Position numbers and translations under genes: made by a program
The notes under the pieces: generated by a model
What the model saw: only the letters and a program-made list of their open reading frames with translations
Told to the model about the DNA's origin: nothing
Databases searched by the model: none
Assembly (NCBI GenBank): GCA_000963575.1
Contig: CP011077.1
Coordinates: 112,288-176,287, forward strand
Direction: 5' to 3'
Length of the DNA: 64,000 nt
Source: Klebsiella michiganensis
GTDB lineage: Bacteria; Pseudomonadota; Gammaproteobacteria; Enterobacterales; Enterobacteriaceae
Shown: positions 3,174 through 50,099 of the stretch, in pieces
How positions within the stretch are numbered: position 1 is the stretch's first letter
Layout of the letters: each line of letters starts with the position of its first letter

Positions 3174-3818
3174 ATGATGGGTGTAAGAGCGCAACAAAAA
3201 GAGAGAACCAGGCGTTCTTTAGTCGAGGCGGCATTTAGCCAGCTAAGCGCCGAGAGAAGCTTCGCCAGCCTGAGCCTGCGTGAAGTTGCCCGTGAAGCCG
3301 GTATTGCGCCAACGTCATTTTATCGCCATTTCCGCGATGTTGATGAGCTCGGTCTCACTATGGTAGACGAAAGTGGCCTGATGCTGCGGCAGTTAATGCG
3401 GCAGGCGCGTCAGCGCATTGCTAAAGGCGGCAGCGTGATCCGTACGTCAGTGTCAACGTTCATGGAGTTTATCGGCAATAACCCTAACGCCTTCCGTCTT
3501 TTGCTGCGTGAGCGTTCAGGCACATCTGCGGCGTTTCGTGCCGCGGTTGCCCGTGAAATTCAGCACTTTATTGCGGAACTTGCCGACTATTTAGAACTCG
3601 AAAATCGCATGCCTCGCAGCTTCACCGAAGCGCAGGCTGAAGCGATGGTCACGATTGTGTTTAGTGCAGGTGCCGAAGCGCTGGACGTTGATATCGAACA
3701 GCGTCGCCAGCTCGAAGAGCGACTGGTGTTGCAGCTACGTATGATCTCGAAAGGGGCATACTACTGGTATCGCCGGGAACAAGAAAAAATGGCACTGGCT
3801 CATTTATCCGAGGAGTGA
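3174..3818 (+). CDS. fabR: TetR-family fatty acid biosynthesis repressor FabR
   Basis: matches E. coli FabR from [21 protein letters not shown]…; the ORF track starts 18 nt upstream at 3156. Confidence 0.93.
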
Positions 3819-3829
3819 AGGAACGAGCA

Positions 3830-4186
3830 ATGAAACAGTTACAAGATAGAGGTACGCTGGCGCTGGCGTTTATCGCTGGGCTGTCGATTAACGGAGCTTT
3901 TGCCGCGCTGTTCAGCTCGGTTGTTCCGTTCTCGATGTTCCCTATTATCGCTCTGGTGCTGGCGGTTTATTGTCTGCATCAGCGTTATCAGAACCGTACG
4001 ATGCCAGTTGGGTTGCCGAGCCTTGCCGCGGCCTGTTTTGTGTTAGGCGTGCTGCTTTATAGTTCAGTGGTTCGCGTTGAATACCCGGCGATTGGGTCTA
4101 ACTTTGTTCCTTCGATTCTGTCGGTGGTTGTGCTGTTCTGGATTGTGTTTAAAGTTCGCTCCCGCAAATCAGAAGCGGTTGAGTAA
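3830..4186 (+). CDS. yijD: DUF1422 inner membrane protein YijD
   Basis: [30 protein letters not shown]… matches YijD; start chosen by homology (ORF begins at 3815). Confidence 0.9.
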
Positions 4187-5327: not shown

Positions 5328-5464
5328 GGCTAGCTATCCAGTCGGTCAATGAATACAAACTACGCGGCGATTGTAGGGATTCGACCCGGGATGTCCAGCC
5401 CGATCGCGTTAAGAAGTTCAGCCGGAAGTCTGGACACCCATATAAGCCTAACGGTAGCATGGCT

Positions 5465-5700
5465 TTTCCGGCCTCCTGAGAGTTAAAAGGGAACCCAGTG
5501 TAATTCTGGGGCTGACGCGCAGCGGTAAGGAACGGCAAGATGAAAGCATTATGCAGACACTGCTTTCTTATATAAGCGGGAAGTCCTCATCTTATTTAAG
5601 CCCCCAAGCCCGAAGACCTGCCGGAATGACGTCGCAAGTGATATGGCTATCGCGTGCTATTTGCCATATCTGCGGCATCCTATTCGAAAGCGGATGCTTA
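5465..5700 (+). promoter_or_regulatory. cobalamin (AdoCbl) riboswitch in the btuB leader
   Basis: GCCTCCTGAGAGTTAAAAGGGAACCCAGTGTAATTCTGGGGCTGACGCGCAGCGGTAAGGAA… and the B12 box AAGCCCGAAGACCTGCCGG closely match the E. coli btuB leader. Confidence 0.85.
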
Positions 5701-8720: not shown

Positions 8721-10264
<1,544 letters not shown>

Positions 10265-10349
10265 CCTAATAGATACAACCCGCGTAGTGCTCACACAGAT
10301 TGTCTGATAGATGTAGAGAAGCAAGGCGTCTTGCGATTGAGACTTCAGT

Positions 10350-10425
10350 GTCCCCTTCGTCTAGAGGCCCAGGACACCGCCCTTTCACGGCGGTAACAGG
10401 GGTTCGAATCCCCTAGGGGACGCCA
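10350..10425 (+). tRNA. gltT: tRNA-Glu (UUC) in the 16S-23S spacer
   Basis: GTCCCCTTCGTCTAGAGGCCCAGGACACCGCCCTTTCACGGCGGTAACAGGGGTTCGAATCCCCTAGGGGACGCCA. Confidence 0.98.
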
Positions 10426-10637
10426 CTTGCTGGTATGTAAGTGAAAGTTGCGTGCCGTTATATCTCAAAACTGACTTGAAAGAGTCACGTTTGAGATATT
10501 TGCTCTTTAACAATCCGGAACAAGCTGAAAATTGAAACGACATGTCGTCTCGTTCTTCCGTAATAAAGAATGAGGTTAAGACATGTTCGAGTCTCTCAAA
10601 TTTTCATAATCTGAAGTGAAACATCTTCGGGTTGTGA

Positions 10638-13545
<2,908 letters not shown>

Positions 13546-13632
13546 ACAACACCGAAGGTGTTTTTAGAGAGATTTTCAGCTTAGTTCAGGATTAGATTGA
13601 TGGTCACGGGAGTGACGGTCAATGACAGAATT

Positions 13633-13752
13633 TGCCTGGCGGCCGTAGCGCGGTGGTCCCACCTGACCCCATGCCGAACTCAGAAGTGAAACGCCGTAGC
13701 GCCGATGGTAGTGTGGGGTCTCCCCATGCGAGAGTAGGGAACTGCCAGGCAT
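13633..13752 (+). rRNA. rrf: 5S ribosomal RNA
   Basis: TGCCTGGCGGCCGTAGCGCGGTGGTCCCACCTGACCCCATGCCGAACTCAG…ACTGCCAGGCAT (120 nt). Confidence 0.99.
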
Positions 13753-29428: not shown

Positions 29429-31006
29429 TTAGCCGTCGTGGACGCTCTCCCAGCTAAGGTTAAAACGCGCCAGATATTTACGCAGGCGGTCAGCATCATT
29501 AGGGTTTGCCTTTTTCAACCGCGAGACGGCAAAGAGTTCGCGTCCGGCCTCGGAAAGCGACTGGGTGCGGCGGCAAACCTCCAGCACGGTTTCAAGTTGG
29601 CGCCTATCGAACAAGTCTATATCTGGATTGAGCGTTGTTTCGGGAGAGGCGATTTGCCAGCTCTCTTTAAGCTGCGAGATCTCTTCTTGCACAGTGTCCA
29701 GCGCGATCCGCCCTTGCTCGGACAGGGTCGCCATACGTGATACGGACGAGCTGAGCTCGCGGAAGTTACCGCGCCATTGTGCCTGTGCAGAACAGGCAAA
29801 ATTCAGATAATGGTCCCTGGCCTCTTTATCAAAACGTATCTGCGTTTGTGCTTCGGTAGAGAAGCGTTGCAGTTCGTACTCTACGTTGGGCGCAATGTCT
29901 TCCCGCCGCTGCGCCAGACCCGGCAGGGCAAAACTCCACATATTAATCCTGGCATAGAGATCTTCGCGAAAGCGGCCCGCCGCAACCCACTGGCGCATAT
30001 CCCGGTGGGTGCCTGCAATTAGCTGGAAATCGCTCTGTACCTCTTTATCGGAGCCAAACGGAAAAAACGTTTTTTCTTCGATAGCTTTAAGCAGCATGGC
30101 TTGTTCGTCCAGCCCCAGCTCGGCGATTTCGTCCAAAAACAGTACGCCCCCGTCGGCCTCACGTAATAGCCCTGTACGTGCCGTCAACGCGCCGGTGAAC
30201 GCCCCTTTGACGTGCCCGAATAGCGTGGACATCGCGTTATCACCCCGCAGCGTGGCGCAGTTTACCGCCACAAACTTGCCGCCAACCTGGTGGCGAGCTT
30301 GCTTGAGCTGGTAAATGCGTTTTGCCAGGAAAGATTTGCCCGCCCCGGTAGGGCCGGTAAGTAACATGGGGGCCGCGGATCGGAGCGCAACCCGCTCAAT
30401 GCGATCGATAAGCTGGTTAAAGGTGGCATTTCGCGTGTCGATGCCCGCTTTCAGGAAAGAAATGGACCGTTGCTGCTCGCGCTGAAAGCGACTGGTTAAG
30501 GTGGTATAGCGACTTAAATCGAGGTCGATAACCGAGTAAGTTCCTGCGGGAGAGCCTTCTTCTGGGGTGCCTTTCTGGGCCGGGCTGGTTTGCAGCAAGC
30601 TGGCGGGGAGGTAGCGCGCCTCCGTTAAAAGAAACCAGCAAATTTGTGCGACATGCGTTCCGGTGGTGATATGCACCAAATACTCTTCATTTTCGGTATC
30701 GAAATCGTACCGGGTAGCAAAATCAAGAAAGGCGGCGTACACCTCTTCAAAGTCCCACGGATCTTTGATTGTGACCTGATGCCTGCGTACCTCCGTATCG
30801 GGCGAAACACGCGCGATATCGTCTGATAACTGCTCCGTCATGCCGGAATCTCTCGGCTGATAAAGCAGCTCGAGCCGGTCAACGGGGAAGTCCGGCTGCT
30901 GGCAAAGGCCAACCGTTGGTCGCCATTTATGGAAACGATTTGCCCGCTTGCCGCGTTTATCCAGCACCGTGCCCAGCACGCCAATCACCACACGCCGTTT
31001 TTTCAT
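29429..31006 (-). CDS. rtcR: sigma-54-dependent transcriptional activator RtcR (N-terminal CARF domain, AAA+ domain with GAFTGA, C-terminal HTH)
   Basis: 525 aa; Walker A GPTGAGKS, GAFTGA loop (GHVKGAFTGA), overall match to RtcR including the N-terminal CARF-like region; divergent from an rtcB-containing operon. Confidence 0.93.
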   Translation of the reverse strand: MKKRRVVIGVLGTVLDKRGKRANRFHKWRPTVGLCQQPDFPVDRLELLYQPRDSGMTEQLSDDIARVSPDTEVRRHQVTIKDPWDFEEVYAAFLDFATRYDFDTENEEYLVHITTGTHVAQICWFLLTEARYLPASLLQTSPAQKGTPEEGSPAGTYSVIDLDLSRYTTLTSRFQREQQRSISFLKAGIDTRNATFNQLIDRIERVALRSAAPMLLTGPTGAGKSFLAKRIYQLKQARHQVGGKFVAVNCATLRGDNAMSTLFGHVKGAFTGALTARTGLLREADGGVLFLDEIAELGLDEQAMLLKAIEEKTFFPFGSDKEVQSDFQLIAGTHRDMRQWVAAGRFREDLYARINMWSFALPGLAQRREDIAPNVEYELQRFSTEAQTQIRFDKEARDHYLNFACSAQAQWRGNFRELSSSVSRMATLSEQGRIALDTVQEEISQLKESWQIASPETTLNPDIDLFDRRQLETVLEVCRRTQSLSEAGRELFAVSRLKKANPNDADRLRKYLARFNLSWESVHDG

Positions 31007-31141
31007 TTTTATCCTAAAAGATAAATATCGATATTAAAGGATAAAAAATAGCGCTATATCCGACAAGGCTTGAACCAGGGTTTATTTTTAAAATATTTAT
31101 TAATCATCATATTATGGGATTTATTTATCTTTTTTATTTTC

Positions 31142-31157
31142 TGGCACGCTTCTGGCA
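31142..31157 (+). promoter_or_regulatory. sigma-54 (-24/-12) promoter TGGCACGcttcTGGCA driving the divergent operon
   Basis: GG at 31143-44 and GC at 31155-56 with the canonical 12-nt spacing; matches TGGCACG-N4-TTGCW in 14 of 15 specified positions; AT-rich region upstream. Confidence 0.75.
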
Positions 31158-31167
31158 ATAACGTAAA

Positions 31168-31436
31168 TGTGTTTAGCACAAAGGGGGTTAAACCCCACCG
31201 GCACGCCAGGAACGGTACAGACTGTTTTTCGGGCGTGTTCCGTAGGTGAGAACGCACAGACAAGGGTTCGATTCCCAATTCATAACTGGTTGTTAACGAA
31301 GAAAGTCACACAGGAGCCTTGAGCTGTCAGCAAGCTCCGAAGAGGGTCGCCGGTAATGGCGCCGGGCCGCAGGCAAAAAGGAATTCCCCTGCAGTCTCGC
31401 TCCCTTACCCGCGCCTGATTTTTAAGGAACAGGAAA
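31168..31436 (+). ncRNA. long structured 5' leader or candidate non-coding RNA (tRNA T-arm-like GGGTTCGATTCCC plus several hairpins) between the sigma-54 promoter and the first ORF
   Basis: approximately 270 nt without a convincing ORF; hairpins at 31184-31196, 31209-31241, 31321-31337; GGG-TTCGATT-CCC at 31264-31276 is identical to a tRNA T-loop consensus. Confidence 0.35.
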
Positions 31437-32564
31437 ATGATGAAGAAAATAACAATACGCAAAGGTCAACTGGGGCTGCTGGCGAAGCAGGGCGATTACT
31501 ATCAGGTTCTGGAAGCGGGTGAACACCGGCTGCCTTGGTTTAGCCAGCCGGAAGTGCTGGTGGTGAATCTGGATGGCAGCGAAGTTCCTGAAATGCTCGC
31601 GCTGTATTTACGTCGTTTCCAGCCCGACTGGGTTGAACGCTACTGCCTGACCGTGGATCTGGCGGATGGCGAAATCGGCGCTTTGTCGGTAAACGGCATT
31701 TTGCAGGAAATTTTACCCCCTTTAACGCAGCGTTTGTTCTGGCAGGCCGGGGAGACGTTGACGCTGGCACGCATCGATACCCAAACCGTACAGGTGCCCG
31801 CCGAAATAATGAATGCAGTTCTGCAGCCACGTCGAAGCGGCGCGGTGAAAGGGCGAGATGCCATCCTGGTCGTTTCTGTGCCAGCCTGGCACGTTGGCGT
31901 CATAAAAATTGATGGTGAAACTCAGGCGCTGTTACCGCCGGGCATGACCGCATGGTGGAAAATAAATCATTTGGTTGAAGCCGAAGTGGTGGATACCCGC
32001 CTGCAGGCTCTGGAGGTCGGTGGGCAGGAGATCCTGACCAAAGATAAGGTAAACCTGCGTTTAAACATGGCCGCAAACTGGCGCTACAACGATGTGTTAC
32101 AGGCTTTTGGCCAATTAACTAAACCAGTAGAGCATTTGTATCGTGAGCTGCAATTTGCGCTGCGAGAAGCGGTAGGGACGCGAACGCTGGACGAGTTGCT
32201 GGAGGATAAGCAAGTTATTGATGAGGTCGTCAGCGCACAGGTAAAAAACCGCACAGCCCCGTTCGGTATCGAAATAGCCTCGCTGGGCGTAAAAGACATT
32301 GTGTTGCCGGGCGACATGAAAACCATTCTGTCCCGGCTTGTAGAGGCTGAGAAATCGGCGCAGGCCAATGTAATTCGTCGGCGTGAAGAGACGGCGGCCA
32401 CGCGTTCGCTGCTGAATACCGCAAAGGTGATGGAAAACAACCCGGTAGCGTTGCGCTTAAAGGAACTGGAAACGCTCGAAAGAGTCGCGGAACGTATTGA
32501 TAAAATTTCCGTATTTGGCGGCCTGGATCAGGTTCTACACGGACTGGTTAATCTCAAAGGATAA
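31437..32564 (+). CDS. cytoplasmic SPFH/band-7 (slipin-like) domain protein
   Basis: 375 aa; C-terminal half has the SPFH pattern (…TKDKVNLRLNMAANWRYNDV…GIEIASLGVKDIVLPGDMK… coiled-coil tail); no N-terminal TM helix; the N-terminal approximately 150 aa looks like a second, partial SPFH-like beta region. Confidence 0.8.
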   Translation: MMKKITIRKGQLGLLAKQGDYYQVLEAGEHRLPWFSQPEVLVVNLDGSEVPEMLALYLRRFQPDWVERYCLTVDLADGEIGALSVNGILQEILPPLTQRLFWQAGETLTLARIDTQTVQVPAEIMNAVLQPRRSGAVKGRDAILVVSVPAWHVGVIKIDGETQALLPPGMTAWWKINHLVEAEVVDTRLQALEVGGQEILTKDKVNLRLNMAANWRYNDVLQAFGQLTKPVEHLYRELQFALREAVGTRTLDELLEDKQVIDEVVSAQVKNRTAPFGIEIASLGVKDIVLPGDMKTILSRLVEAEKSAQANVIRRREETAATRSLLNTAKVMENNPVALRLKELETLERVAERIDKISVFGGLDQVLHGLVNLKG

Positions 32565-32568
32565 GAAA

Positions 32569-33795
32569 ATGCAGAATAACGAATTTCAACTGTTGGCGGC
32601 GGAAAACAGCGCGCCGATAAAAATGTGGACCCACGGCGTACCGGTTGAGCCGGAGGCGCGCGAGCAATTGCTGAACACGGCGAAGATGCCGTTTATTTTT
32701 AAACATCTGGCGGTGATGCCGGATGTGCATCTCGGAAAAGGATCAACTATCGGCAGCGTTATTCCCACCAAAGGCGCCATTATACCGGCGGCGGTTGGGG
32801 TCGATATTGGTTGTGGAATGATTGCCGTGCGCACCTCGCTGGCGGCGGGCGATCTGCCGGATAACCTCAGCGGATTGCGCAGTGCGATTGAACAGGCGGT
32901 GCCTCATGGCCGAACCAACACGCGCTCTCGCCGTGATAAAGGCGCGTGGAGCACACCGCCTGAAGAGGTTGACGGGCATTGGTCGCAGCTGGCACCACGA
33001 TTTAAGCGCCTGACGGACAAATACCCGAAGCTGCTGAAAACCAACAATTATCAACATATGGGGACGTTGGGCACCGGTAACCACTTTATTGAAGTTTGTC
33101 TGGATGAGCAGCAGAGAGTATGGGTGATGCTGCACAGCGGATCGCGCGGTGTGGGAAATGCCATCGGGAATCTTTTTATCGCCCTGGCGCAGAAGGATAT
33201 GCAGCAGCACATGGCCAATCTGCCGGACAAAAACCTGGCTTACTTTCAGGCAGGCAGCCAGCACTACGATGATTACATCGAAGCGGTGGAGTGGGCGCAG
33301 GACTTTGCCCGCCATAATCGGGAGGTCATGATGTCTCGCGTGCTGGCCGCGCTGTCGCGTATTGTTAGCAAACCGTTTATGACGCAGCAGGAAGCGGTGA
33401 ATTGCCATCATAACTACGTGCAACAGGAAACGCATTTTGGTGAGGAAGTGCTGGTCACCCGTAAGGGGGCTGTTTCGGCACAGAAAGGCCAGATGGGCAT
33501 CATTCCAGGTTCTATGGGGGCCAAAAGCTTTATCGTGCGTGGACTGGGAAACGAACAAAGTTTTTGCTCTTGTAGCCACGGCGCCGGGCGCTCCATGAGC
33601 CGAACGGCGGCTAAAAATCGCTTTACCGTTGAGGATCAGATACGCGCCACCGCCCATGTTGAGTGCCGTAAAGACAGTGAAGTGATTGATGAAATTCCGA
33701 TGGCTTATAAAGACATTGATGCCGTCATGGCGGCGCAGTCTTCGCTGGTGGAAATTGTGCATACGCTCCGGCAGGTCGTCTGTGTAAAAGGATAA
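32569..33795 (+). CDS. rtcB: RNA-splicing ligase RtcB (3'-phosphate/5'-OH RNA ligase)
   Basis: 408 aa from MQNNEFQLLAAENSAPIKMWTHGVPVE…; near-identical to E. coli RtcB, including the metal-binding His/Cys residues (…HNYV…, …CSCSHGAGR…); the ORF track's upstream extension to 32497 is not supported by homology. Confidence 0.96.
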   Translation: MQNNEFQLLAAENSAPIKMWTHGVPVEPEAREQLLNTAKMPFIFKHLAVMPDVHLGKGSTIGSVIPTKGAIIPAAVGVDIGCGMIAVRTSLAAGDLPDNLSGLRSAIEQAVPHGRTNTRSRRDKGAWSTPPEEVDGHWSQLAPRFKRLTDKYPKLLKTNNYQHMGTLGTGNHFIEVCLDEQQRVWVMLHSGSRGVGNAIGNLFIALAQKDMQQHMANLPDKNLAYFQAGSQHYDDYIEAVEWAQDFARHNREVMMSRVLAALSRIVSKPFMTQQEAVNCHHNYVQQETHFGEEVLVTRKGAVSAQKGQMGIIPGSMGAKSFIVRGLGNEQSFCSCSHGAGRSMSRTAAKNRFTVEDQIRATAHVECRKDSEVIDEIPMAYKDIDAVMAAQSSLVEIVHTLRQVVCVKG

Positions 33796-36004: not shown

Positions 36005-36312
36005 AGGGGCCATTCAACTGGCAAAAAAGTATTCAGCCTTGGCACAAGGGAAGAGCGGTAAACGGGTGGGCGCAGAGCAGGAGAACTACGATATCACCCA
36101 GAAGTGCTCCACCTTGTCTATCCAGCCTTTTGAGCCGGATATGAAACGCTCGACTGCGAACGTTTCTGGTGACAACCCAGAGGATTCAGCCCCTGCAGCC
36201 GACAATAAGCGTGACCAGCCGCTTTATCATCTCGGCGTTGCTCCCCCTCACGTATCGTCCTTGTTACTGGTTCCTCGGATACGATTTTCTGGGCAACGCG
36301 CCTCTTCTGGCC
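36005..36312 (-). promoter_or_regulatory. lysine riboswitch (L box) in the lysC leader
   Basis: minus-strand GGCCAGAAGAGGCGCGTTGCCCAG…GGGCTGAATCCTCTGGGTTGTCACCAGAAACGTTCGCAGTCGAGCGTTT…GGTGGAGCACTTCTGGGTGA… closely matches the E. coli lysC leader. Confidence 0.88.
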
Positions 36313-36540
36313 TGCGCACGCGCAGGTAGCGCCTAATAAATAAAGCTTCAGCGAAGGCATGTCAACTGCGGGGTTATGCGGATTTTTCATGTTAAATCCG
36401 GAATCAGGAATTTAACTAATATACTCGTCATACTTCAAGCCGCAGGTGCGTTGCCTGCACCCGCTCACCTCAGTCACATAGTTAGCTATGCTCCTGAGGA
36501 TTCCCGGTCTTGCCGCCTTCCTGCAACTCGAATTATTTAG

Positions 36541-38328
<1,788 letters not shown>

Positions 38329-38346
38329 TTAAACCGCATGATGAAA

Positions 38347-38378
38347 ATATGCCAGCCTTGTGCTGGCATATTTTTTAT
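38347..38378 (+). terminator. pgi intrinsic terminator
   Basis: atatgccagccttgtgctggcatatttttt. Confidence 0.8.
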
Positions 38379-38399
38379 AAGAGTTATCCCCTTGCCGTC

Positions 38400-38690
38400 A
38401 TAATTCTCAATATTGTCACCCTGAGGTTAATCCGAAAAACGGTTTCACCACCTCTGTCTCAGGTCTTTAATTTAAGATTAAATTGAATTTGTTTTTTTCT
38501 GTTATTTTTATAATTAATTGTTTTTAGTGAATTTATTTTTTACTTAATACAATTTGCATCTTAATTTTTACTCTTATTCTTAAAATCCCTTCCTTATTTA
38601 TCACAGGCTAATTCATCACATTGTGTTGTGTATACTCGATCGCGCCTGAAACCTTTTCAGGTAAATCTCCATTCATTCAATGAAGGGAAA
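38400..38690 (+). promoter_or_regulatory. extended AT-rich promoter region of the yjbEFGH operon
   Basis: approximately 290 bp of strongly A/T-biased sequence with A-tracts; in E. coli the yjbEFGH promoter is Rcs-regulated. Confidence 0.4.

Positions 38691-48746: not shown

Positions 48747-50099
<1,353 letters not shown>

Follow-up and report, generated by a model that had tools for sequence, protein, structure and literature searches.

A conserved leader RNA with a tRNA-type T-arm upstream of slipin and RNA-repair genes in Enterobacterales

The RNA ligase RtcB joins RNA ends of the 2',3'-cyclic phosphate type. In their 2016 abstract, Burroughs and Aravind reportedly bring together SPFH/Band-7 modules, "a novel tRNA-like molecule" and the nucleotidyltransferase RlaP. 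The subject of the present work is the leader RNA of an operon of this kind, found in a 64,000-nucleotide (nt) stretch of the Klebsiella michiganensis contig CP011077.1 (hereafter the window), in which a segment carrying the T-arm of a tRNA precedes the genes of a slipin of the Band-7 (SPFH) family, RtcB and RlaP. According to the passage that Wang et al. (2018; bioRxiv 10.1101/312249) devote to such loci, citing Burroughs & Aravind (2016), some bacteria encode RtcB beside a Band-7 protein and a predicted non-coding RNA, named b7a-tRNA, which is said there to strongly resemble authentic tRNA and to be a functional analogue of YrlA.

YrlA (RF02553) is a Y RNA encoded inside an RtcB operon under the control of RtcR and sigma-54 (rsr-yrlBA-rtcBA), and its presumed partner, Ro60, is a ring- or cage-forming scaffold protein. 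RtcR is a CARF-domain activator of sigma-54; tRNA fragments that end in a 2',3'-cyclic phosphate switch it on, as known from the Salmonella protein (PMC7790460). RlaP adds one or two nucleoside monophosphates (1-2 NMP) to 3'-OH ends of RNA, damaged tRNA ends among them (PMC12776372). A literature search found no experimental data on the Band-7-associated tRNA-like RNA. Judged by sequence comparison, the enteric leader is very probably a reduced variant of the predicted b7a-tRNA class.

The leader RNA and its relatives in other proteobacteria

From its predicted start (~31168) to the slipin ATG (31437), the leader measures ~269 nt, and the proposal of an initial annotation of this DNA, that some 270 nt here hold no credible open reading frame (ORF), is upheld. 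A small peptide (51-amino-acid ORF, 31167-31322) and antisense ORFs were rejected, since relatives carry frame-breaking indels of 1, 2, 11 and 13 nt and since conservation tracks helices, not codons. As the same annotation had pointed out, the T-stem-loop GGGTTCGATTCCC lies on the + strand at 31264-31276; with one mismatch allowed, 0.04 such matches are expected in the window by chance, and its 64 kb contain just one besides this, in the T-arm of the genuine tRNA-Glu at 10400. The T-arm (31263-31277, + strand) is composed of a stem (31264-31266/31274-31276) and the T-loop UUCGAUU (31267-31273). Its stem comprises 3 base pairs (bp) only, flanked by the mismatch A31263.A31277, which is unpaired in the window's lineage; in relatives, it extends to 4-5 bp with covariation (C-G, U-A, U-G; G-C to A-U).

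These relatives are 15 enterobacterial leaders, aligned from promoter to start codon, of Cedecea, Escherichia coli, Citrobacter, Klebsiella, Kluyvera, Chania, 'Enterobacter' lignolyticus, Superficieibacter, Mangrovibacter, Lonsdalea and Providencia. Across them, the T-loop hardly departs from UUCRAYU: it reads UUCGAUU except in C. neteri (UUCAAUU) and in Lonsdalea and Providencia (both UUCGACU). The inner G-C pairs of the stem (the GG/CC core) are invariant and the outer stem pairs covary, a pattern that points to purifying selection on the motif. The initial annotation had considered that the motif might be only 3 bp deep and not conserved, of which the first part is true of the window and the second is contradicted by the alignment.

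A profile of 61 diverse Band-7 homologues served to collect Band-7 loci, 80 in all, from contigs limited to one genome per species. ARAGORN detects a tRNA-like gene 250-430 nt upstream of Band-7 on the same strand in most loci of Pseudomonas, Burkholderia and other betaproteobacteria, with an odd or unassignable "anticodon" and frequently as one of two tandem units, the downstream one of which is scored as tRNA by Rfam (43-69 bits). By a strict T-loop pattern, 41 of the 50 non-enteric proteobacterial loci hold two T-loops in tandem, 7 a single T-loop and 2 none. The layout, from 5' to 3', is a sigma-54 promoter (28/50), the hairpins P1 and P2, unit 1, unit 2, a hairpin, a long GC-rich region and the Band-7 gene, and the leaders end in a small GC hairpin just ahead of the Shine-Dalgarno (SD) sequence. 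Of unit 1, often only an acceptor-like stem, a mini-hairpin and the T-arm are left, and it often ends in ...CCA. Unit 2 is a full cloverleaf with an acceptor stem of 5-6 bp, and its anticodon loop is often swapped for a GNRA or UUCG tetraloop, so that it offers no anticodon and no obvious target site for anticodon nucleases. In many betaproteobacterial leaders (L014 3598-3669, L016 3574-3633 and others), the encoded ...CCA of unit 1 directly abuts the 5' end of unit 2.

The enteric leader was related to these elements by a covariance model, R1, built solely from the enterobacterial P1-P2-T-arm alignment. R1 matches >35 non-enteric beta- and gammaproteobacterial loci over its full length, on the correct strand and at the correct position upstream of Band-7 (E 2e-9 to 1e-2), and places the enteric T-arm on the T-arm of unit 1. 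The T-arm is thus homologous to the tRNA-like element of RtcB repair-operon leaders, which agrees with the earlier suggestion of a tRNA-like RNA tied to the RtcB system. Unit 2 is missing in all Enterobacterales examined, and the distance from promoter to ATG is ~300-365 nt in this order as opposed to ~510-590 nt elsewhere. At the level of aligned leaders, the complete cloverleaf is shown to have been lost in Enterobacterales, and the acceptor-like hairpin additionally in the window's lineage. A recombination deletion between the two near-identical T-arms would account for the enteric arrangement, though it may also have a T1/T2 hybrid origin.

Like b7a-tRNA, the leader immediately precedes a Band-7/SPFH gene on its own strand within an RtcB/RlaP repair operon, an arrangement shared by every one of the 15 enteric loci and by the majority of the 50 from other proteobacteria. 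Leaders of the b7a-tRNA type and the window leader also have in common a canonical T-arm and homologous 5' domains (R1, E down to 2e-9). In contrast to b7a-tRNA, the enteric leader has no cloverleaf and retains only the T-arm of a truncated unit 1, in the window even without the adjacent hairpin, and its conserved flanks, P1-P2 and P5-P6, make it an RNA of ~250 nt instead of a tRNA-sized one. Full-cloverleaf resemblance to authentic tRNA is found in the non-enteric loci, not in the window leader, which is filed as a reduced b7a-tRNA variant because it is homologous to cloverleaf-bearing leaders, though it does not itself resemble a tRNA.

Other described RNA families were compared as well. Canonical tRNA (RF00005) and the tRNA-like domain of transfer-messenger RNA (tmRNA; RF00023) have the consensus to which the 13-nt T-stem-loop GGGUUCGAUUCCC is identical, whereas the leader lacks the acceptor stem, D-arm and anticodon arm. 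When the window leader was searched against Rfam 15 at E<=10, the sole match was this 13-mer against the T-arm of the tmRNA model; no family matched the leaders of E. coli (L001) and Superficieibacter (L006) at permissive thresholds, and ARAGORN reports only the tRNA-Glu at 10350 in the window and no tRNA in the leader. Identities as tRNA, tmRNA, riboswitch or ribozyme were rejected, as no Rfam family matched.

YrlA resembles the leader in its operon, in its T-arm, which in YrlA as in the leader's relatives is followed by an acceptor-like stem-loop, and in the ring- or cage-forming kind of its presumed partner. The leader differs from it in the lack of a D-arm, of the Ro60-binding terminal stem and of rsr, and its partner would be an SPFH and not a TROVE protein. 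A YrlA- or Y-RNA-like identity, which the initial annotation had put forward along with a covariance-model scan, is not borne out: neither the YrlA nor the tRNA model of Rfam matched the window leader, RF02553 has no match at E<=10 in the window, E. coli L001 or Superficieibacter L006, no enteric sequence contains a D-stem, and no stem joins the 5' and 3' ends in the consensus fold. The annotation was right that Ro60 is missing, no TROVE/rsr gene being present among the locus proteins. This absence is no anomaly, because slipin/Band-7 takes the Ro60 slot in this type of operon.

Helices and distribution of the leader in Enterobacterales

The leader is a conserved, structured, non-coding RNA. 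RNAalifold predicts 43 consensus pairs from the 15 aligned leaders, 31 of them with compensatory double changes, and the comparative alignment that had been suggested at the outset reveals such changes in P1, P2, the T-arm, P5 and P6. Of the cells in the 5' domain, which comprises P1, P2 and the T-arm, 97.3% are paired, and double-sided changes occur in 18/24 pairs, compared with 5.2 +/- 1.5 in column shuffles and 1-4 with slid partners. P1 (31183-31196, + strand; GGGG 31183-31186 with CCCC 31193-31196, loop GUUAAA) shows compensatory changes in all 4 pairs, with the variants GUGG/CCAC in Lonsdalea, UGAAC/GUUCA in Providencia and GGAG/CUCC in Mangrovibacter. P2 (31199-31242, + strand) is a long hairpin with internal loops, in which 31199-31216 pairs with 31221-31242 through a CGG/CCG base, a UU bulge, a CAC.CC/GG.GUG segment and an apical AACGGU/ACUGU helix. 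Among the enteric leaders, P2 has double-sided changes in 12/16 pairs and 98.7% of its cells paired, and the helix is maintained across 33 sequences from three orders.

Downstream of the T-arm, an acceptor-like "AS" hairpin of 5-9 bp abuts it in Cedecea neteri, E. coli, Citrobacter, Klebsiella, Chania, Kluyvera, Superficieibacter, Lonsdalea and Mangrovibacter, and covaries among them. In the window, a remnant of the AS hairpin followed by the conserved ACUGGUUGUUAAC occupies 31278-31297 (+ strand), and the 11-13 nt that form the hairpin are deleted with respect to C. neteri, at a point between ~31283 and 31284. The deletion is common to the window, two assemblies with an identical slipin and two diverged Logan contigs without rtcB, and its presence in these other assemblies and contigs indicates that it is real and lineage-specific and not a sequencing error. 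The window leader is the most reduced T-arm-bearing form seen.

The 3' part begins with P5 (31313-31338, + strand), a hairpin of GGAGC(C)UUG and CAAGCUCC with the loop AGCUGUCAG. Its equivalents are GGGAUUGC/GCGAUCCC in E. coli, GGCAGUCC/GGAUUGCC in Superficieibacter and GCCACCG/CGGUGGC in Lonsdalea, and that of Kluyvera also differs in sequence; the AS and P5 hairpins, whose sequences differ between genera, were judged sequence by sequence. P6 (31345-31416, + strand) is a long stem of irregular pairing; its apical part, GCAGG-CAAAA-(GGAAUUCC)-CCUGC, is conserved, and it has a UCG bulge. It comprises 20 pairs with 95.8% of cells paired, and 10/20 pairs show double-sided changes, compared with 4.8 in shuffles and 0-4 in slid controls. 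The leader closes with a U-tract (31419-31423) and an unstructured spacer containing the SD sequence AAGGA (31424-31428), which together fill 31419-31436 (+ strand) before the slipin ATG.

Two further pairings were dropped. A long-range pairing of P1 with the T-arm came from a four-sequence RNAalifold prediction and disappeared with 15 sequences, in which both form local hairpins with their own covariation. A P3 hairpin between P2 and the T-arm (GUCA/UGAC) occurs in some species but is unsupported in the window, Klebsiella and Chania, and it is not claimed.

A distant BLASTN search matched the leader to unannotated DNA of 69% identity in 1,632 of 5,426 complete E. coli genomes (~30%), in each case between yjbD and a pair of slipin and RlaP genes, and to a 73%-identical leader in a Citrobacter record; in both, the identity falls into blocks. 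The E. coli cassette (L001 6001-8282; L002), in the yjbD-lysC interval, consists of GATAA repeats, a sigma-54 promoter, the leader, slipin and RlaP, with neither rtcR nor rtcB at the locus; presumably, RtcR from the rtcBA locus acts on its promoter in trans. The rtcB gene is variably inserted in otherwise collinear enteric operons (window 32569-33795; L003-L007, L058, L086, L088, L090-L091). The window, C. neteri, Chania, E. lignolyticus and Providencia have it; Citrobacter, Klebsiella, Kluyvera, Superficieibacter, Lonsdalea, Mangrovibacter and Logan contigs with a slipin 96% identical to that of the window do not. The order RtcR, leader, Band-7, (RtcB), RlaP is found in most loci, and the leader is conserved with slipin and RlaP regardless of rtcB or rtcR at the locus.

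Outside this order, in betaproteobacterial Band-7/RtcB loci without rtcR and the sigma-54 promoter (L013, L019, L021, L025, L029, L030, L042, L047, L050, L054, L082), 5-13 tRNA genes of canonical appearance (for Asp, Phe, Arg, Pro, His, Glu, Lys, Leu and others) are arrayed ~1-2 kb upstream of Band-7, on the strand of the tRNA-like leader and directly 5' of it. The arrays may be spare tRNA sets tied to the repair module, and the position of the leader just 3' of same-strand tRNA genes suggests maturation by tRNA-processing enzymes in these loci. In cyanobacteria (Nostoc, Calothrix, Chamaesiphon; L059-L070, L073-L078, L081, L083), tandem tRNA-Met(CAT)-like pairs lie 1-3 kb upstream of Band-7 on the same strand, and no RtcR, RtcB or RlaP homologue was found within 4 kb of Band-7.

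Promoter, proteins and surroundings of the operon

The gene order in the window is rluF (+), yjbD (-), an SBF transporter gene (-), rtcR (-), a 430-nt intergenic region, slipin-RtcB-RlaP (+) and lysC (-). The divergent rtcR (29429-31006, - strand) encodes a CARF and sigma-54 AAA+ activator (Pfam RtcR 4e-83, Sigma54_activat 1e-49; PADLOC RtcR CARF_AAA_HTH 2e-264). The sigma-54 promoter that had been proposed ahead of the leader is confirmed in the sequence at 31142-31157 (+ strand), with the -24 element TGGCAC at 31142-31147 and the -12 element TGGCA at 31153-31157, in exact agreement with the consensus TGGCAC-N5-TGGCA, for which 0.09 occurrences are expected in the window by chance. Its position gives the predicted transcript start at ~31167-31169. 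The -24 GG/-12 GC arrangement beside a divergent rtcR is that of the RtcR/sigma-54 promoter type, and a promoter stands at the equivalent place in 15/15 enterobacterial loci and in the 28 of 50 other proteobacterial loci mentioned above. A second exact TGGCAC-N5-TGGCA at 49864-49879, inside a 446-amino-acid ORF (48759-50099), is probably fortuitous.

Between the rtcR start and the promoter, the motifs TTATC-N5-GATAA and AAAGGATAA are repeated (31010-31050, + strand), and TTATC-N5-GATAA / AAAGATAA repeats are common to Klebsiella, Superficieibacter, Mangrovibacter and the E. coli copies without rtcR at the locus. An A/T-rich, GATAAAAATTTATTT-like box (31100-31135), also between rtcR and the promoter, is kept across the enteric loci. 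By their sequence, the repeats are candidate enhancer sites (upstream activating sequences, UAS) for RtcR and the box is a candidate site for integration host factor (IHF).

The slipin gene (31437-32564, + strand; Pfam Band_7 6e-25) is followed by that of RtcB (32569-33795, + strand; Pfam RtcB 1.5e-131), a protein of 408 amino acids from the ATG at 32569, in line with the 408 amino acids of the relatives' gene calls, and by that of the nucleotidyltransferase RlaP (PF10127; 33799-34587, + strand; Pfam RlaP 4e-95). The AlphaFold2 (AF2) model of the slipin, with a predicted local distance difference test score (pLDDT) of 90, combines an SPFH domain and a long helix with two beta-sandwich-like repeats at the N-terminus, and it contains no membrane segment; the protein is predicted to be soluble. 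Foldseek relates the model to stomatin, HflK/C, prohibitin and the major vault protein (MVP), the latter over >400 alignment columns with E 5e-10 and a TM-score of 0.39. As in the vault particle, which is composed of MVP and vault RNA, beta repeats at the N-terminus are joined to an SPFH "shoulder" and a long helix, and the slipin adjoins a small structured RNA; the resemblance to vaults is one of fold level in a predicted model only, and stomatin and HflKC score better.

Elsewhere in the window, Rfam detects at the gathering threshold a cobalamin riboswitch (5452-5639), a ribosomal RNA operon with tRNA-Glu (8721-13750), the lysine riboswitch of lysC (36094-36314, - strand) and a match to the small RNA STnc430 (38338-38500, - strand), which is just at the gathering score of 47 bits. 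A mobile origin of the locus was rejected, as no phage matched and the three "plasmid" matches are records of chromosomal character, in which the locus has the rluF-yjbD...lysC-pgi surroundings that it has in the window. A defence system was likewise rejected; PADLOC recognises RtcR only, plus one marginal RlaP match.

Possible function and meaning of the leader RNA

Several points weigh against the reading of the leader as a b7a-tRNA-type RNA. According to the passage in Wang et al., b7a-tRNA had not been experimentally validated as of 2018 (bioRxiv 10.1101/312249), and equating the leader with it draws on the second-hand description of Burroughs & Aravind (2016) given there. The tRNA-like part is minimal in the window (3-bp T-stem, AS hairpin deleted), so that a role as tRNA mimic is weakest in the window's lineage. 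The leaders of Pseudomonas entomophila (L020) and P. soli (L045) keep the promoter and P1-P2 and contain no T-loop (~3545-4000), so that the RNA may be able to do without a T-arm and may have its core function in another part. The "several stable hairpins" of the initial annotation stand as conserved helices, and they do not make the whole leader more stable than shuffled sequence (z = -1.0, no excess). The alignment of 33 sequences (A9), in which helices are 96.7% paired with 137 double-change cells compared with 36 in shuffles, was fitted to the model, and these pairing counts are inflated as a result. Finally, R2, the covariance model of the 3' domain, matched only Providencia and Gilliamella, at the same position and with E ~1e-3, and nothing beyond Enterobacterales and Gilliamella; the 3' domain, including P6, thus diverges faster or is specific to the order.

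In spite of these points, the leader is probably, with a fair amount of doubt, both a reduced b7a-tRNA-type RNA and a partner that acts at the level of RNA. Damaged tRNA fragments would activate RtcR, upon which the leader RNA would be the first product, transcribed in cis with the genes of slipin, RtcB and RlaP. It would be cut from the mRNA, probably within the A/U-rich linker (31298-31312) that separates P5 from the T-arm module; excision as a tRNA-sized RNA is not expected in enteric bacteria because the determinants for RNases P and Z are gone. The released RNA could then serve as partner or cofactor, scaffold or decoy of a soluble, cage-type Band-7 protein, in analogy to the Y RNA with Ro60, and its invariant T-loop would offer a surface like the tRNA elbow to tRNA-handling proteins. 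The specific mechanism, a ribonucleoprotein (RNP) of Band-7, RtcB and RlaP, is argued by analogy and is put forward tentatively.

Less likely than this mechanism, although it deserves serious attention, is a leader that acts purely in cis as a 5' untranslated region (UTR) and governs mRNA stability, attenuation or translation of slipin-rtcB-rlaP. In one version, the T-loop would sense tRNA or tRNA fragments, as the T-loop modules of the T-box, RNase P and the L1 stalk bind tRNA elbows; in another, P6 and the U-tract would form a leaky terminator. Such a role is consistent with the constant position of the leader, which invariably belongs to the 5' UTR of one gene, in its orientation and at a fixed distance, and the GC hairpin before the SD sequence of the non-enteric leaders could stabilise a processed mRNA 5' end. 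The terminator version finds support in AUUUUU after P6 in the window, C. neteri, K. oxytoca, Chania and E. lignolyticus, but this U-tract is confined to 5/14 enteric species and is missing in E. coli, Citrobacter, Kluyvera, Superficieibacter, Mangrovibacter and Lonsdalea. Moreover, no conserved terminator, no conserved helix over the SD sequence or start codon and no conserved pair of mutually exclusive helices was found in the enteric alignment with RNAalifold. The scarcity of the U-tract and the lack of an SD-covering helix disfavour a riboswitch-type role, and the complete tRNA-like units of relatives, often with an encoded CCA in unit 1, look excised, unlike switches.

It is improbable that the T-arm in the window's lineage is a functionless relic of a decaying tRNA-like element, with the flanking domains alone, or nothing, being functional. 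Decay would account for the stepwise reduction from two units in beta- and gammaproteobacteria through a T-arm with hairpin in enteric bacteria to the 3-bp T-arm of the window clade, for the T-loop-free leaders of some Pseudomonas, and for the low stability of the isolated window T-arm, which folds at only -3.7 kcal/mol. It does not account for the invariance of T-loop and GG/CC core in 15 Enterobacterales, from Providencia to E. coli, for the covariation of the outer stem, or for the T-arm that is unchanged in the diverged Logan relatives carrying the AS deletion. Least of all is a true YrlA-type Y RNA to be expected that works with a Ro60 encoded elsewhere in the genome: the T-arm of relatives and the acceptor-like hairpin after it follow the T-AS order of YrlA (PMC4201824), and sub-threshold YrlA matches span the unit 1/unit 2 junction in three non-enteric loci (28-33 bits, with a gathering score of 69), but such weak junction matches are a known false positive of dimeric tRNAs (Chen et al., 2014; PMC4201824), and the window, E. 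coli and Superficieibacter leaders combine the missing YrlA match with the lack of a D-arm, a terminal stem and rsr at the locus.

For the leader as a reduced b7a-tRNA-type RNA, what had been predicted in 2016 is the class of Band-7-associated tRNA-like RNA, and what is new is its reduced form in tractable Enterobacterales. The leader class is widespread in this order, including E. coli, and it is neither in Rfam nor annotated in RefSeq; the R1 and R2 covariance models could seed an Rfam family. The natural series from two units to T-arm with hairpin, T-arm only and no T-loop separates the role of an elbow mimic from the roles of P1-P2 and P6, and the finding bears on what bacterial RtcB repairs and on how Y-RNA-like cofactors contribute. 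In a broader and rather doubtful proposal, the leaders would belong to a larger class of ~250-450-nt RNAs with an invariant P1-P2 core, which persists in P. entomophila and P. soli although all T-loops are gone there, and around which tRNA-like modules are gained, truncated or lost, and which would provide the RNA subunit of a soluble, vault-like SPFH cage that houses tRNA repair by RtcB and RlaP. If this is true, the P1-P2-core RNA would be a bacterial analogue of the vault and Ro RNPs that is present, unannotated, in ~30% of E. coli genomes.

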